64,000 nt of DNA from an uncultured Acidimicrobiia bacterium (GTDB taxonomy: Bacteria; Actinomycetota; Acidimicrobiia; Spongiisociales; ZC4RG35): assembly GCA_963744905.1 (NCBI GenBank), contig CAVUUV010000003.1:513503-577502 (forward strand), given 5' to 3'. Position numbers and translations under genes: made by a program. Under the pieces are notes generated by a model, which was not told the DNA's origin, made no database searches, and saw only the letters and a list, made by a program, of their open reading frames with translations. Below are positions 13,086-52,686 of this stretch, one piece after another. Numbering within the stretch: position 1 is the first letter of the stretch; each line of letters begins with the position of its first letter.

Positions 13086-13162
<77 letters not shown>

Positions 13163-19657: not shown

Positions 19658-21541
19658 TCAGACGGGGCTGATGGTGCAGCTGCAGTCCCGATGGGCGGGC
19701 GGAACCTCGTCGCCGGCTTCCGCCGCCGCCCGACAGGTCGGGCACAGTCGCCCCGAAGGTACCCAGTCCCAGCCACGGCGGTTGCGTTCCAGAGCAGACC
19801 GCAGCGCACCGTGATAGGAGGCCAGGGCCATGGAACGGATCCTTCGCTCCGCTTCGTCGGTGCGCCACCCCCGAAAGATGCGGGAGGCAGCGGCAGAGCG
19901 CTCCCGTGACCCGGCGCCCGACGCCTGCAGTGAGGCCTGCAGCGCCTGAGCCAGGTCGGCCCCCATCTCTTCCACGTCGGGCACCTCCTCCCCGGGACCG
20001 GTTCCAACGTTGCTCAGGCCCATCTCGGTGGCGGCTTCCCGTCCCGCTTCGGCCGATTCGGCCACCAGTGCCTCGAGATCGGAGCGGAACCCCGACTCCA
20101 GCTCTCCGGCATCGGGAACCCACTCTCCCTCGGTGAGCCGGATCTGTTCCAGGGCCTGATTCTGGGCGTCGGTCAAGGCCCGCTTGACCGTCCGCAACGC
20201 CTGATTGGTCAAAGGCAACAGGAGACGCTCCCGGATCTCGAAGACGTCGACGTTGCCGTTGCCGTCGACCGGCTCGATTGCTGGTTCGGACTGAGGCTCC
20301 TCCTCGCCCTCCCCGTCGGGGAGTGGAGCGGCGCTGTCCGGCTGTGGCTCGCCTCTGGGCGGGCGACGCAACCGGCGAAACAGTTCGGCCACGTGGTCGG
20401 GTTCCTGGCCCGACTCCGGCTCTGGCCCGGCCCGTGTCTCGGGTTCTTCCCGGGCAGGCCCGGACCCTGTCCTGTCCTCGGGCGGTGCCACGGGTTCGGG
20501 TTCGGGAGCCGACAGGAGCTCTTGGGCGTCAGGCCGGGGCGCCGCCTTACCCTCGGGCGGTGCCACGGGTTCGGGTTCGGAGGCTCTCGCTGTGGCCTCG
20601 TCAGCGCGGAGACGTGCTACCTCCTCGGCCAGGGCGTCGGCGTCGGCCTCCTCCTCCATCACCTGAGGCTCTCCAGGCTCCGCCCGGTTGGGCCTGATCA
20701 CTCGAACGGTGTGGCCGTCCTCCCAATCTTCTGAGTGTGGAATTCCGAATTCGTCGGCCACAACGGCCCGGCGGGGCAGGTCGGGAGGCTCGGTCAGGCC
20801 CAGACCGGACCGGCGCTCTTCTAGCTCGCCTTCGAACGCCGACAGGGCGGTGCGAACCGACTCCAGCTCGTCCATCAGCTCCTGGCGCCGCTGCTCGAGT
20901 GCTCTGGTCCGTTCCTGGGCCGCGTCCGCCTGGCGATGCGCCGAAGCGATGATGTCGTCGTGCTCGGCTCTGGCATCGGTCACCCACTTCTCCGACTCCA
21001 TCTTGGCGTTCCTTACGGTGTCCTCGGCCTCGCGACGGGCGCTGGAGGTGAGGCGGTGCGCTTCCCGCTCGGCCTCTCCCAGCACGGCCAGCGATTCGCG
21101 TTCGGCGGTCCTGGCCATCTCCTCGGTCTGGGCCCGGACCTGGTCCAGCATCTGGGAGCTGGTCGTCCAGGCATCGCTCCTCATCGCCTCGGCATCCTGG
21201 CGGGCCGCCTTGATCACAGCTTCGGCCTCGGCCGTGGCCTCGGTGCGCCAACGGGAGGCGTCGGCGGTAGCCCGGTCACGAATCGACTCGGCGGCGGTAC
21301 GGGCCGCCTCCAGGACCGAGGCGACTTCCCGGCCCACGTTCTCGAACTCGGACTTGAGGTCCTTGTCGGCGAATTCGCCCAGACGCGAGGACAGCCGGTC
21401 GCGTTGTTGAACCAGTTCTTCGACGGCAGCGGCCACCCGCTCCAGGAATTCGGCTACCTCCTCCGAGTCGTAACCTCGGAAGGCGGTCCGAAAGCTGGCG
21501 CGCCGTATCTCTTCTGGCGTCGGCTGGGTGGTCATGGGCAT
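19658..21541 (-). CDS. DivIVA-domain protein with a long Ala/Glu/Arg-rich coiled coil, a 25-aa internal duplication and a C-terminal Cys-rich tail
   Basis: N-terminal DivIVA motif (TPEEIRRASFRTAFRGYDSEEVAEFLERVA). A 30-bp repeat at 20476-20505 and 20551-20580 encodes EPEPVAPPE twice. C-terminus reads ...CPTC...CSC. Confidence 0.65.
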   Translation of the reverse strand: MPMTTQPTPEEIRRASFRTAFRGYDSEEVAEFLERVAAAVEELVQQRDRLSSRLGEFADKDLKSEFENVGREVASVLEAARTAAESIRDRATADASRWRTEATAEAEAVIKAARQDAEAMRSDAWTTSSQMLDQVRAQTEEMARTAERESLAVLGEAEREAHRLTSSARREAEDTVRNAKMESEKWVTDARAEHDDIIASAHRQADAAQERTRALEQRRQELMDELESVRTALSAFEGELEERRSGLGLTEPPDLPRRAVVADEFGIPHSEDWEDGHTVRVIRPNRAEPGEPQVMEEEADADALAEEVARLRADEATARASEPEPVAPPEGKAAPRPDAQELLSAPEPEPVAPPEDRTGSGPAREEPETRAGPEPESGQEPDHVAELFRRLRRPPRGEPQPDSAAPLPDGEGEEEPQSEPAIEPVDGNGNVDVFEIRERLLLPLTNQALRTVKRALTDAQNQALEQIRLTEGEWVPDAGELESGFRSDLEALVAESAEAGREAATEMGLSNVGTGPGEEVPDVEEMGADLAQALQASLQASGAGSRERSAAASRIFRGWRTDEAERRIRSMALASYHGALRSALERNRRGWDWVPSGRLCPTCRAAAEAGDEVPPAHRDCSCTISPV

Positions 21542-21619
21542 TTTCCAAGATACAGGCCAGGACCCGACAAACCCGACGTTTGCCCCCACGAGGGACGAGG
21601 CGGGCGGACCAGCCCCGGC

Positions 21620-21727
21620 TTCTTTGGACGCTGAGGAACGCCCCTCCCCTTCTTTGGACCGTCGCCGTCGCTATGCGTTCCTGGCGGTCCAAAGAAGCCG
21701 TAAACCGTTCCCCGGGGTCCAAAGAAC
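21620..21727. repeat. Palindromic repeat element, copy A: TTCTTTGGAC-N20-TTCTTTGGACCG-loop23-CGGTCCAAAGAA-N18-GGTCCAAAGAA
   Basis: Four 10-mers as two direct plus two inverted copies. The loop contains TCGCTATGCGTTC, which is also the core of copy B at 51174-51280. Lies between the 3' end of the Lon-PDZ gene and the 5' end of the DivIVA-like gene. Confidence 0.6.
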
Positions 21728-21753
21728 CATGTCGCTCGTCGCTCTCGGTCGGG

Positions 21754-22779
21754 CTAGGCCTCCGGCAGTGAGGCCAGGAAATCGAGGGCATCGTCGATGG
21801 TGGAGACCGGTTTCAGCTCCATCGAATGGCGGGGAGCGGTCATAGCGGCGTCATAGTTGGCCTGCGGCACCAACATGTACTCGGCCCCGGCGGCCTCCGC
21901 CGCCACCACCTTCTGGCGCACCCCGCCGATGGCGCCCACCTTCCCGTCGGGGGAGATGGTCCCGGTGCCTGCCACCACGTGGCCATGGGCCAGGTCCCCG
22001 TTGGAGAGGGTCTCGATGATGGCCAGCGTGTACATCATCCCCGCCGAGGGGCCCCCGACGATTCCCGGATTGACGTCGATCCAGAAGGGAAGCTGGCGGA
22101 TGAAGATCCCGATGAACGCCTGGCCCGGGGTATCGGGATTCTCGGCCAGTTCGATGTCGTAGGTGTGCTCCTCGCCACTCCGAAGCACGGTCAGCCGGAT
22201 CGTGTCCCCGGGCTTCTTGCCGGCCAGCGCCGGGGCCAGATCGTCCACACCGGTCACCTTCTTCCCTTCGATGGCGGTGATCTGATCGCCGATCCTCAGC
22301 ACCTTGCCGGCCGGCGTGGCAGCCGCGTACCCGGTGATGAACACCTTGTCGGCCTGGGCCTCCAGGTTCAACTTGGACAGGGCCACCGTGATTGCAGTGG
22401 CGGTCGACTGATCCATCATCTGCAGGTTGAGGCGCTGGTACTGCTCATCGGACACGCCAGGCTTTCTGACCCGGTTCCGGGCCAGGACATCGACGGTTGG
22501 ATCGATCCCGGCCACCACCGCCTCGAAGGCGTTGAGGGGTTGGCTCTCCACCGTCAGCATCAGCAGCTCGCCGTGGGGCTGTTGAACCGGATGGCCCTCG
22601 ACGATGACCGCTGCCGAGGCGTCGCCCACCGGCCCGGGAGACCATGCGACGAGCGGCAGAGGGATGTTCCAGGCCAGGACCACCAGGCCCAGTACGAAGA
22701 AGACGATGGCCGCGGCAGTGAGTGAACGCTGGGGCTTGGGTGGTGACTGGTCGCTCACCGGCCGGATCGTATCGCCCAC
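21754..22779 (-). CDS. PDZ domain-containing Lon-like (S16) protease, YlbL/SepM-like, membrane anchored
   Basis: N-terminal TM (LTAAAIVFFVLGLVVLAW), a PDZ region, and a C-terminal Lon protease domain with ...GPSAGMMYTLAIIETL.... Confidence 0.7.
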   Translation of the reverse strand: MGDTIRPVSDQSPPKPQRSLTAAAIVFFVLGLVVLAWNIPLPLVAWSPGPVGDASAAVIVEGHPVQQPHGELLMLTVESQPLNAFEAVVAGIDPTVDVLARNRVRKPGVSDEQYQRLNLQMMDQSTATAITVALSKLNLEAQADKVFITGYAAATPAGKVLRIGDQITAIEGKKVTGVDDLAPALAGKKPGDTIRLTVLRSGEEHTYDIELAENPDTPGQAFIGIFIRQLPFWIDVNPGIVGGPSAGMMYTLAIIETLSNGDLAHGHVVAGTGTISPDGKVGAIGGVRQKVVAAEAAGAEYMLVPQANYDAAMTAPRHSMELKPVSTIDDALDFLASLPEA

Positions 22780-50897: not shown

Positions 50898-51089
50898 TCA
50901 CACGTCGAGACGATCCTTGATCTTCTCGGCACTCTCGCCGGTTCGCTCCTTGATCCGTCCCACGAGCTCGTCGTAGTTGCCCTCGGCAACGTCGAGGTCG
51001 TCGTCGGTCAGGTTGCCCCAGGCCTGCTTGGCACGGCCTTTGAGCTGGTCCCAGCGACCTTCCCACTTGGTCTGTTTGGCGTCGGTCAT
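50898..51089 (-). CDS. CsbD-family general stress protein
   Basis: MTDAKQTKWEGRWDQLKGRAKQAWGNLTDDDLDVAEGNYDELVGRIKERTGESAEKIKDRL. Confidence 0.6.
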   Translation of the reverse strand: MTDAKQTKWEGRWDQLKGRAKQAWGNLTDDDLDVAEGNYDELVGRIKERTGESAEKIKDRLDV

Positions 51090-51173
51090 GACACTCCTTC
51101 TGTGTCGCGTTCGACCCTGAACTACCCCGCTAGGTCCCGGTTCAAACCGCTCACAACCCCGGCCGGGCGTCGT

Positions 51174-51280
51174 TTCTTTGGACACTCACGAACGCTTCCC
51201 AGCTTCTTTGGACCGTGACTATCGCTATGCGTTCGCCACGGTCCAAAGAAGGGGAGGGGCGTTCCCCACGGTCCAAAGAA
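51174..51280. repeat. Palindromic repeat element, copy B (same architecture as 21620-21727)
   Basis: TTCTTTGGAC at 51174 and 51204; GTCCAAAGAA at 51241 and 51271; loop contains TCGCTATGCGTTC. Lies between the 3' end of qcrB and the CsbD gene. Confidence 0.6.
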
Positions 51281-51333
51281 AGGGGTGCAAGTAGCCCTCC
51301 CCCGACGTCCGGCGCGGGGAACGCCCCTCGGGG

Positions 51334-52686
51334 TCAGGTCTGGCGGCGGAACCAGCGCAGCACTGCTCCGGCCGGCATCTCGGAGAGGCGTTCGGCATCG
51401 GAGCCGGCCAGGCTCTTGAGAAGGACGTAGGTGATCACCCCCACCACCACCGGCAGGATCACCACCAGCCACCGGAATGTGAGGGTGATGTCGTGAACGT
51501 CGGCCCGGAACCATCTGGCGATCAGGTCGTTGGAGCCCGCGAAGAAGAGCACCGCGTAGAAGACGAGGGTGGTGAGACCGAGCGAGGTCCGCACCGGCCG
51601 ATCCCGGGGCCGGTCCAACAAGTTGTGCATGGCGCGGTCGCCGGTCAGGCGCGCCTCCAGGAACGGCCACGCATACAACAGCAGGAAGGTGATCCCGGGA
51701 AGGAGGACACCGGGAAAGAAGGGGTTGGGTATCTCGTGCCCGAACATGGTGATGTCCCAAGAGGGAAAGATCCGCAGCGCCCCCTCCAGCCAGCCCAGGT
51801 ACCAGTCGGGCTGGGCGGGTGACGTGACCTGGGCCGGGTTGTAGGGCCCGTACAGCCACACCGGGTTGATCTGGACCAGACCGCCCAGGGTCATCACCAC
51901 GGCCGCCACCATGAAGAACAGGCCCACCGACTTGACGGCGTAGGAGGGCCACAACCGGGAGCCCACCACGTTGTCCTCGGTCCGGCCCTCCTCCGGAAAC
52001 TGGGTGTGCTTCTGGTGCCAGACCAGGGCCAGATGGATGGAGAGGAGGATGCCGATGGCGATCGGCACCAGCATGATGTGGATCGAGTAGAGGCGGGGAA
52101 TGATTCCCTCGGCCGGGTACTCACCCCCGAAAACGAGGTAGGCGACCCAGGGTCCCACAACCGGAATGGACAGGGCGATCGAGTAGAAGACTCGTAATCC
52201 TGTGCCCGACAGGATGTCATCAGGGAGCGAATAGCCGGTGAAGCCGTTGAAGATGGCGGCCAGCAACAGGGTCACGCCCACCAGCCAGTTGATATCGCGT
52301 GGACGGCGGAACGCCCCCGTGAAGAAGATCCGGGTCAGGTGGACGACGATGGCAGCCACGAAAACGAGCGCCGCCCAATGGTGGGCCTGGCGCATCACCA
52401 ATCCGGCCCGGGTCTTGAAGCTGATGTCCAGCACCGACCGATAGGCCTGTGAAACCTCCACCCCGTGCAGCGGGGCGTAAGAGCCCCGGTAGACGACTTC
52501 GGTCTGGCTGGGATCGAAGAAGAAGGTCAGGAACACACCGGTGAGGACCAGCACGATGAATGCATAGAGGGCCACCTCGCCCAGCATGAACGACCAGTGG
52601 TCGGGAAACACCTTGTCCAGGGTGCGACGGGCGAAGGATGAGGCGTCGAGGCGGTCGTCGATCCCCTCCATCCAACGCTCAATCAT
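51334..52686 (-). CDS. qcrB: Cytochrome bc1 complex cytochrome b subunit
   Basis: 450 aa with the cytochrome b helices and conserved His ligands (...RQAHHWAALVFV..., ...YSIHIMLVPIAIGILLSIHLALV...). Confidence 0.85.
   Translation of the reverse strand: MIERWMEGIDDRLDASSFARRTLDKVFPDHWSFMLGEVALYAFIVLVLTGVFLTFFFDPSQTEVVYRGSYAPLHGVEVSQAYRSVLDISFKTRAGLVMRQAHHWAALVFVAAIVVHLTRIFFTGAFRRPRDINWLVGVTLLLAAIFNGFTGYSLPDDILSGTGLRVFYSIALSIPVVGPWVAYLVFGGEYPAEGIIPRLYSIHIMLVPIAIGILLSIHLALVWHQKHTQFPEEGRTEDNVVGSRLWPSYAVKSVGLFFMVAAVVMTLGGLVQINPVWLYGPYNPAQVTSPAQPDWYLGWLEGALRIFPSWDITMFGHEIPNPFFPGVLLPGITFLLLYAWPFLEARLTGDRAMHNLLDRPRDRPVRTSLGLTTLVFYAVLFFAGSNDLIARWFRADVHDITLTFRWLVVILPVVVGVITYVLLKSLAGSDAERLSEMPAGAVLRWFRRQT

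Follow-up and report, generated by a model that had tools for sequence, protein, structure and literature searches.

Does a perfect four-armed palindrome that stands twice in front of stress or cell-division-type genes mark a regulon, or has it arrived there as mobile DNA? The question is raised by a stretch of 64,000 nucleotides (nt) from an uncultured Acidimicrobiia bacterium (assembly GCA_963744905.1, contig CAVUUV010000003.1, positions 513,503 to 577,502), here called the window, in which two copies of a short palindromic element, A and B, lie between genes. An original prediction had considered three candidates for the element, namely an operator for a multimeric regulator, a structured RNA in an untranslated region (UTR) and a mobile element resembling a MITE (miniature inverted-repeat transposable element). 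The last is the best supported, as the element is absent at syntenic sites and its relatives stand in unrelated contexts; the operator is disfavoured, and the structured RNA stays a rival. A and B are, on balance, probably members of an undescribed low-copy family of small MITE/REPIN-like palindromic insertion elements of deep-branching Actinomycetota (Acidimicrobiia and Thermoleophilia/Solirubrobacterales). A mobile palindromic element is favoured over a regulon operator because of the block-wise presence and absence at two sites, the scatter of members among unrelated genes and the interiors shared between copies.

Both copies have the layout TTCTTTGGAC-N20-TTCTTTGGAC-N27-GTCCAAAGAA-N20-GTCCAAAGAA, and all eight of their 10-nt half-sites are perfect (Table 1). 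The two copies of identical architecture had been recognised correctly, whereas several measures needed correction: copy A spans 107 nt and not about 108, the right outer spacer, given as N18 before GGTCCAAAGAA, is off by one and is actually N20 before GTCCAAAGAA, and the conserved core of 23 nt is an interior of 27 nt, in which only TCGCTATGCGTTC (13 nt) is identical between the copies. Over the whole element A and B agree at 82 of 107 positions (77%), including the 40 arm bases and 19 of the 27 interior positions. A further feature, overlooked in the original prediction, is the pentamer GAACG/CGTTC, which three of the four arms have at exactly 6 nt on their inner side. What is repeated is therefore a bipartite motif of 21 nt, TTCTTTGGAC-N6-GAACG, which occurs three times per 107-nt element beside one arm that has no pentamer. 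The element is small and non-coding, with perfect 10-nt terminal inverted repeats. The short open reading frames (ORFs) that cross it fall outside the called genes, and in these stretches the sequence varies from one family member to another.

Half-site matches with up to one mismatch number exactly eight in the window, all of them perfect and all within A and B, against a mean of 1.5 in shuffled sequence (0/100 shuffles reach eight). At two mismatches the extra matches in the window are at chance level, and the relaxed pattern CTTTGG-N27-37-CCAAAG is found there only at A and B, with 0.02 expected. No further half-sites occur in the window or in the loci fetched for comparison (numbered with the prefix L), and neither nhmmer with an A/B profile nor the covariance model R1 detects degenerate copies in the window or in 302 kb of loci. 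That the element is made of chance palindromes or is an assembly artefact can be regarded as refuted, given eight perfect sites where 1.5 are expected, the same elements in an independent assembly (GCA_049579045.1) and the recurrence of the architecture in other genomes, even though the same arms also occur in some low-GC matches, for instance in a gut-phage coding sequence and in tandem repeats of giant viruses, that are clearly unrelated or due to chance. The sequence GGGAACGCCCC was also considered as a separate genome-wide repeat and was rejected, as it stands at chance level in the window.

The history of the two sites can be followed in related genomes. The QcrB of the window is identical to a protein attributed to an Acidimicrobiia MAG (metagenome-assembled genome). 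The independent assembly mentioned above is a second MAG of the same species and carries both copies, B unchanged (L061) and A with two substitutions (L075). One inner arm of copy A reads TTCCTTGGAC there (L075:1352-1361) and the right spacer has CGTTT in place of CGTTC, which indicates that the arms are not immune to mutation. In the sister species, where QcrB is 91% and the Lon-PDZ protein 87% identical and gene order is kept at both sites, both copies are absent. The qcrB-csbD spacer measures 138 nt in that species against 244 nt in the window species (106 nt shorter), the Lon-DivIVA spacer 108 nt against 218 nt (110 nt shorter), and no half-site at up to one mismatch is present in 42 kb of syntenic DNA. 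Two outgroup lineages, with a Lon-PDZ protein 62-63% identical, are also without copy A. Their spacers of 88 and 75 nt are too short for the element, the order BioY-Lon-next gene is kept (the latter with no Pfam hit recorded, and of 658 amino acids (aa) in one lineage), and UPF0182 follows in the lineage whose contigs reach that far. Copy A is, by parsimony with outgroup polarisation, a gain in the window's lineage; for copy B, which has no syntenic outgroup, the same direction is assumed by analogy with A. Both copies are best read as recent unit insertions, present or absent as a block with synteny otherwise intact.

These absences bear directly on the operator. An array of four half-sites at 30/37/30-bp spacing, on which a multimeric DNA-binding regulator would wrap or loop the DNA, would control the DivIVA-like gene and csbD. 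Such an array would suit the eight perfect half-sites amid diverging spacers, the fixed spacing, a bipartite 21-bp site that resembles a protein-binding site and the position of both copies, which end exactly 84 nt before a start codon, upstream of conserved promoter-like sequences. However, the sister species and the outgroups have no such sites at these promoters, although their promoter-proximal sequence is conserved, and the whole 107 nt came as a block and did not evolve in place. Members elsewhere lie beside unrelated housekeeping genes, often in gaps that leave only about 17-25 nt to the preceding stop codon and 30-35 nt to the start codon that follows, or they lie inside a coding region; interiors are common to copies of one genome, and the covariation of an apical stem, described below, is superfluous for a regulator that binds duplex DNA. 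The operator thus fails both in conservation at orthologous promoters and in functional coherence of its targets, and is improbable.

The distance from element end to downstream start codon is indeed the same 84 nt in both copies (21535-21620; 51089-51174), which is probably coincidental, since a stop codon and the promoter that follows it leave little neutral space between them. In the sister species the stretch that separates each element from the downstream start codon is conserved. Upstream of csbD this stretch includes GGTTT-N15-GGGTAG (51120-51148, minus strand), kept in the sister species as well (L062), which resembles an actinobacterial sigma-B/F-type promoter and is a candidate for one; copy B ends 25 nt upstream of it. 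The stress or cell-division link that the original prediction drew from the neighbours is coincidental, as the neighbour genes share no functional theme, and the element does not appear to explain the regulation of DivIVA or CsbD.

Members in other genomes were collected by two scans for TTCTTTGGAC-N23-31-GTCCAAAGAA with exact arms, one of representative genomes and one of metagenome contigs, which returned 16 and 44 loci, respectively. A search of related genomes had been proposed as a check, and it did find members, in Acidimicrobiia and Solirubrobacterales MAGs. The high-GC members, about 20 beyond A and B, comprise five Acidimicrobiales/Microthrixaceae and two Solirubrobacterales MAG loci and about 15 metagenome contigs (soil, other), and their interior is 27 nt long in all except L001 and L011 (28 nt). 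The low-GC matches have interiors of 23-31 nt and are unrelated or chance sequences. The four-arm layout with N20 spacing and the placement of GAACG/CGTTC recur in L035, in L041/L048 (one locus in two samples) and in L057, and L006 is a three-arm member. Since the outer arms were absent from the search pattern, their recurrence is independent evidence of arm conservation.

Interior sequence is common to copies of one MAG or dataset (A/B; L006/L011; L030/L040; L026/L038/L047 with the copies in TrmH genes described below) and differs widely between lineages. Shared interiors are what copying within a genome would predict, although dataset-level groupings may span several organisms. The same pattern weakens the earlier argument that conservation of the loop implies a sequence-specific function, which common descent of the copies fits equally well. 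The neighbour genes are diverse (ndk/mreB, ruvB/queA, tsaD, AMP-ligase, SDR, HAD, SBP56/DUF488, uvrD and others); in one pair an SDR gene, which we take by eye to be FabG-like, stands with a PP-binding (ACP-like) gene. For most members the distance from the preceding stop codon is 5-55 nt and the flanking genes are co-directional; L006 lies between divergent ones. Copy density is low, with two copies in the 64-kb window, two in MAG JAVKSQ01 and one or two exact-arm matches per representative genome. The picture differs from the one by which the original prediction would have recognised a MITE, namely dozens of copies with target-site duplications: besides the low density, no such duplication is visible.

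Several other matches to the scans stand apart. In low-GC Eubacteriales MAGs (L009:5170-5310 and L010:3520-3650) a different nested palindrome, with GTCCAAA(T/G)GGGGACAACC-like units, surrounds the same 10-mer; it has no relation to the actinobacterial family. In many samples an identical N26 palindrome, its arms the same as those of the family, recurs within apparent human-gut phage coding sequence (L018, L021, L022, L032, L056, L058, L059 and L083-L087); as a family member it was rejected as a chance match to the search pattern. Giant-virus contigs (L088-L096, GC 0.18-0.41) contain tandem arrays of TTCTTTGGAC with periods of 11-30 nt, also unrelated to the element. Three scans of viral contigs returned only this phage palindrome, the tandem repeats of giant viruses and 15-mers at chance level, and no high-GC sequence was among them.

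What the members share beyond their arms is a fold. Folding of both strands, which had also been proposed, gives a long interrupted three-segment hairpin with z-scores well beyond shuffled controls (RNA -62 to -68 kcal/mol, z -4.7 to -8.6; DNA, z -5.2 to -8.9). The basic module is a 47-nt hairpin, in which a variable 5-bp stem closes a loop of 5 nt and each side of this stem is separated by 6 nt from an arm, TTCTTTGGAC on the left and GTCCAAAGAA on the right, and the four-arm Acidimicrobiia sub-family nests this module in a second pair of the same arms, 20 nt further out. The apical 5-bp stem covaries across 22 cores: 5/5 pairs show double changes, with 32 cells against 12.3 in shuffles (0/500 reach this value), and slid controls collapse. 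The two loop-closing pairs are formed in 20/20 distinct cores, and the loop always has 5 nt. In the GAACG/CGTTC 'middle helix' of the four-arm elements, one-sided changes are uncompensated (L057, L041, L035) and the inner-left GAACG has no partner, so that GAACG behaves as a sequence motif and not as a helix. The orientation of the element to the transcribed strand varies between loci; relative to the upstream gene it is forward in A and B, whereas L041/L048 and L057 have it in reverse. Nor does the sense strand show an enrichment of G-U pairs (9 G-U against 18 A-C). Neither property gives a sign that one RNA strand is the functional molecule.

A host-selected structured RNA in the 3' UTR or inter-cistronic region, acting on the transcript as a barrier to exonucleases, a place of RNase III-type processing, a factor-dependent attenuator or the target of an RNA-binding protein, with mobility incidental, would account for the very stable folds on both strands, the covarying apical stem with its invariably formed loop-closing pairs, the usual position shortly past a stop codon between co-directional genes and the compensatory arm changes by which the hairpin in TrmH genes keeps its pairing. 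On the other hand, a purely structural RNA needs neither an invariant 10-nt arm nor an uncompensated GAACG, and template switching in quasi-palindromes can also yield compensatory-looking changes. Inconstant orientation to the upstream gene, the lack of a G-U excess on the sense strand, the place of L006 between divergent genes, the absence of the element at both sister-species sites and the lack of an Rfam match or of a U-tract after the hairpin count against it as well. This explanation is rather unlikely, though less so than an operator.

The core of the element seems to be inverted relative to its outer spacers when A and B are compared. The A spacer at 21630-21649 agrees with the reverse complement of the B spacer at 51251-51270 in 17/20 positions, against 12/20 for the A left spacer and a B spacer in the same orientation, whereas for the interiors it is the same orientation that gives the better match (19/27, and 15/27 when flipped). 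L048 and L057 show a core/spacer orientation difference like that of A and B. A flip of the core relative to the outer spacers, which would make the element a flip-flop-like mosaic, is suggestive only. It would be explained if the arms were cut and rejoined in a structure-specific recombination or replication-linked processing site analogous to attC, dif or a hairpin-resolution site, and the layout of the element, in which an unpaired 6x6 spacer stands between the conserved basal stem and a short variable stem with its variable loop, does resemble the attC plan. Yet there is no GTTRRRY/RYYYAAC core, no cassette array and no integrase seen in the loci, the copies are isolated in core-genome operons, and the evidence for the flip comes from short spacers (17/20 against 12/20). 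Such a site is very improbable.

A further set of copies lies within a gene. In four Solirubrobacterales contigs the 47-nt module stands in frame within a TrmH-family methyltransferase gene between rplT and pheS, where it encodes VLWT-x9-SKE by AT-ending codons (GTT CTT ... AAA GAA) in a gene whose GC content at third codon positions is about 0.8-0.86. The encoded segment is a variable surface loop of hypervariable length among 120 orthologues. The LWT/SKE signature is kept in only about 4-8 of these 120, and close relatives have decayed arms; many more distant orthologues carry 'ELW...AK', and others have a short loop. A clean in-frame insertion was rejected for this gene, because solved TrmH structures align through the segment and the length gain over short-loop orthologues is only 6-8 aa. 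In the one 'ELW...AK' orthologue whose DNA was compared (L156:3523-3571, 69% protein identity), a hairpin occupies the same position. Its arms, GAACTTTGGC/GCCAAAGTTC, depart from the family arms by two flips of T-A to A-T and by a single change of A-T to C-G; its apical stem has 4 bp and its loop 5 nt. Exact-arm scans therefore see only part of a wider family.

Several of these results weigh against a mobile element. No target-site duplication is visible, and no direct repeat flanks A, B, L035, L041 or L057; the flanks and spacers of the empty sites are too diverged for an alignment of filled and empty sites to fix the junctions at single-base resolution. Neither a transposase nor an autonomous parent was found, the ORFs of the window having been judged by inspection, without Pfam annotation, and no RAYT (Y1) transposase was seen among the scanned neighbour genes of members. 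A covariance model of the 47-nt core retrieved no further copies in 302 kb of sequence, and about 240 kb of other element-bearing or related loci gave none either. In part, the arms look conserved across classes through ascertainment, the scans having demanded exact arms. A and B are only 77% identical and yet are both missing from the sister species, so that neither is a fresh copy of the other. The maintenance of pairing at the orthologous TrmH site while the arm sequence drifts suggests something other than selfish spread alone, and the pairing could have been kept through selection on structure or through template-switch correction of quasi-palindromes.

A more novel possibility is rather unlikely and to be held tentatively. 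The 47-nt module would be the substrate of a dedicated protein system conserved in Acidimicrobiia and Thermoleophilia, either a domesticated hairpin-binding transposase or recombinase (an analogue of RAYT-REPIN, unrelated in sequence) or a structure-specific recombination system, which would maintain the arms, flip the core and seed copies, while resident copies such as the one kept with compensatory changes in TrmH would then have a host function.

If A and B are mobile insertion elements, as is preferred here, they would have been moved in trans by a DNA transposase or recombinase. The enzyme would bind either the repeated bipartite sites, in the manner of transposases that act on multiple sub-terminal repeats, or the folded single strand, in the manner of RAYT/IS200-type enzymes on hairpins. 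With three bipartite sites each, the elements are similar to several transposon families that have multiple sub-terminal binding sites, and in its constrained geometry the hairpin is similar to the substrates of hairpin-binding enzymes (RAYT/IS200-type, attC-type). Between co-directional genes the element would be co-transcribed and fold into a hairpin of about -60 kcal/mol, which might buffer 3' ends or attenuate read-through as repetitive extragenic palindromic (REP) elements do. This RNA-level effect is plausible as a consequence of insertion and would be a side effect, not the reason for the presence of the element.

The coordinates of the features are collected in Table 1. The gene context originally described, past the stops of the Lon-PDZ and qcrB genes (27 and 53 nt away) with the DivIVA-like gene and csbD downstream, is confirmed, and each copy sits between co-directional minus-strand genes.

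Table 1. Copies of the element, their parts and their neighbour genes in the window, and the modules embedded in TrmH genes (positions of the latter are those of the fetched loci).
Feature	Position	Strand	Remarks
Element copy A	21620-21726		107 nt, four half-sites; flanked by the stop of the Lon_C/PDZ gene and the start of the DivIVA-like gene
Outer left half-site TTCTTTGGAC, copy A	21620-21629	+	followed by N6 and GAACG at 21636-21640
Inner left half-site TTCTTTGGAC, copy A	21650-21659	+	
Interior, copy A	21660-21686		27 nt; apical mini-hairpin CGC-TAT-GCG; 13-mer TCGCTATGCGTTC at 21668-21680, common with B
Inner right half-site, copy A	21687-21696	-	N6 and GAACG next on the minus strand
Outer right half-site, copy A	21717-21726	-	CGTTC at 21706-21710, 6 nt inside
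Element copy B	51174-51280		107 nt, architecture as in copy A; between the qcrB stop and the csbD promoter
Outer left half-site, copy B	51174-51183	+	followed by N6 and GAACG
Inner left half-site, copy B	51204-51213	+	
Interior, copy B	51214-51240		27 nt; 13-mer TCGCTATGCGTTC at 51222-51234
Inner right half-site, copy B	51241-51250	-	
Outer right half-site, copy B	51271-51280	-	
Lon_C + PDZ (YlbL-like) protease	21754-22779	-	upstream gene of A; stop 27 nt from element
DivIVA/Scy-domain protein	19658-21535	-	downstream gene of A; start codon 84 nt from element; Pfam labels
Cytochrome b (qcrB)	51334-52686	-	upstream gene of B; stop 53 nt from element
csbD, 63 aa	50898-51089	-	downstream gene of B; start codon 84 nt from element; Pfam label
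TrmH-embedded modules	L005:3262-3308; L007:2697-2743; L019:710-756; L044:1089-1135		

Some sequences close to the two sites deserve a record of their own. At the empty site B of the sister species, GTCCGGAGAA (L062:11390-11410) gives an 8/10 match where the outermost B arm sits in the window; it could be a remnant, or a target similarity to the element end. A contig with an 86%-identical QcrB (L063:7916-7943) stops 27 nt past the qcrB stop, before site B would be readable. Outside copy B, beside the qcrB stop, the 14-nt sequence GGGGAACGCCCCTC (51314-51327) is identical to the B spacer motif and near-identical to that of A, and the sister species has GGAGAACGTCCCTCC at the matching position of its empty site; this motif is no genome-wide repeat. 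About 4 nt from copy A lies a tandem 7-nt duplication, GAGCGAC GAGCGAC (21731-21744, minus strand), of which no counterpart was found in the sister species, though the spacer there aligns unreliably.

Comparison with catalogued motifs gave no identification. At the gathering threshold Rfam reports nothing relevant to the element in the whole window, where the sole match above threshold is one tRNA gene (13089-13162, minus strand), and E-value scans of both element types give only sub-threshold chance matches, in agreement with the earlier statement that no known motif is matched. The element is not a plain terminator either, as had been said: no T-run or U-tract follows the hairpin on either strand. 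A terminator scan gave one match within an element, in copy B, where TTCTTT follows a hairpin of the internal spacer, and another outside copy A, and a promoter scan gave no sigma-70-like sites. LexA, HAIR, CIRCE, ClgR, DosR, GlnR, NrdR, parS, the DnaA box, dif and extracytoplasmic function (ECF) -35/-10 motifs were considered and rejected, as none fits. A blastn search of PLSDB plasmids gave no match to the element. In the searchable literature the 10-mer occurs only in primers and unrelated sequences, and searches on REP elements and MITEs gave no actinobacterial match; small dispersed palindromic repeats appear to have few actinobacterial descriptions there, and none for Acidimicrobiia or Thermoleophilia.

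The two sites offer a clean recent case of insertion, polarised by outgroups at one of them. The four-arm regularity and the bipartite site suit a protein pull-down, one resident copy is embedded in a conserved gene, and the element could lead to a new hairpin-recognising enzyme or serve as a strain-level marker in metagenomes. For regulon prediction it is a caution, since here mobile DNA is the most likely account of a palindrome that has several perfect sites and stands upstream of stress genes.

Among known systems, integron attC sites follow a plan of R-box, unpaired spacer, L-box and variable loop. The element is similar in its conserved basal stem, unpaired central spacer, short second stem and variable loop, and in the precedence of structure over interior sequence; it differs in its arms TTCTTTGGAC/GTCCAAAGAA, which lack an R'/R'' consensus, in the absence of cassette arrays and of IntI, and in its phylum. 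The transposon ends of Mu, Tn7, IS21 and the IR/DR Tc1-like elements contain multiple sub-terminal transposase-binding repeats. As in those ends, each end has two direct-repeat sites, the two ends being inverted to each other, and the bipartite site measures about 21 bp. In contrast, the element has no TG/CA ends, measures only 107 nt as a whole and has no cognate transposase identified.

Rickettsia palindromic elements and enterobacterial RU/ERIC sequences within genes (PMC2759123) are comparable to the member lying in frame in a variable surface loop of the conserved TrmH-family gene. Here, however, the length gain of about 6-8 aa is not a clean 47-nt insertion, and the hairpin persists with compensatory arm changes. 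Bacterial MITEs (Correia/NEMIS, RUP, ERIC, Nezha; PMC3184786, PMC10969869) are likewise non-coding, about 100 nt long and bounded by terminal inverted repeats; they show insertion polymorphism between close relatives, and they are intergenic and co-transcribed, with long RNA hairpins possible. The element differs in having no detectable target-site duplication and no known parent insertion sequence with the same ends. Its inverted repeat is moreover duplicated internally, giving four arms, and its centre is structurally constrained across two classes and is not a deletion remnant.

The remaining comparison is with the REP, BIME and REPIN sequences of Proteobacteria and their RAYT enzymes (PMC2817692, PMC3116915, PMC3337134). 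A REP survey (PMC3733652) defines a REP as a palindrome of 20-40 nt, one end of which has a conserved GTAG or CGTC tag, and a term search of this survey gave no mention of Actinobacteria. The arms of the element begin with TTCTTTGGAC and have no such tag, the repeated unit TTCTTTGGAC-N6-GAACG is not itself palindromic, the interior is nearly always 27 nt, and the density is low, whereas REPs usually exceed 100 per genome. The likeness lies in short extragenic hairpin palindromes that form composites of inverted units, stand just past stop codons between co-directional genes, belong to a lineage-specific sequence class and are presumably mobilised in trans by a single-copy enzyme that recognises folded DNA.

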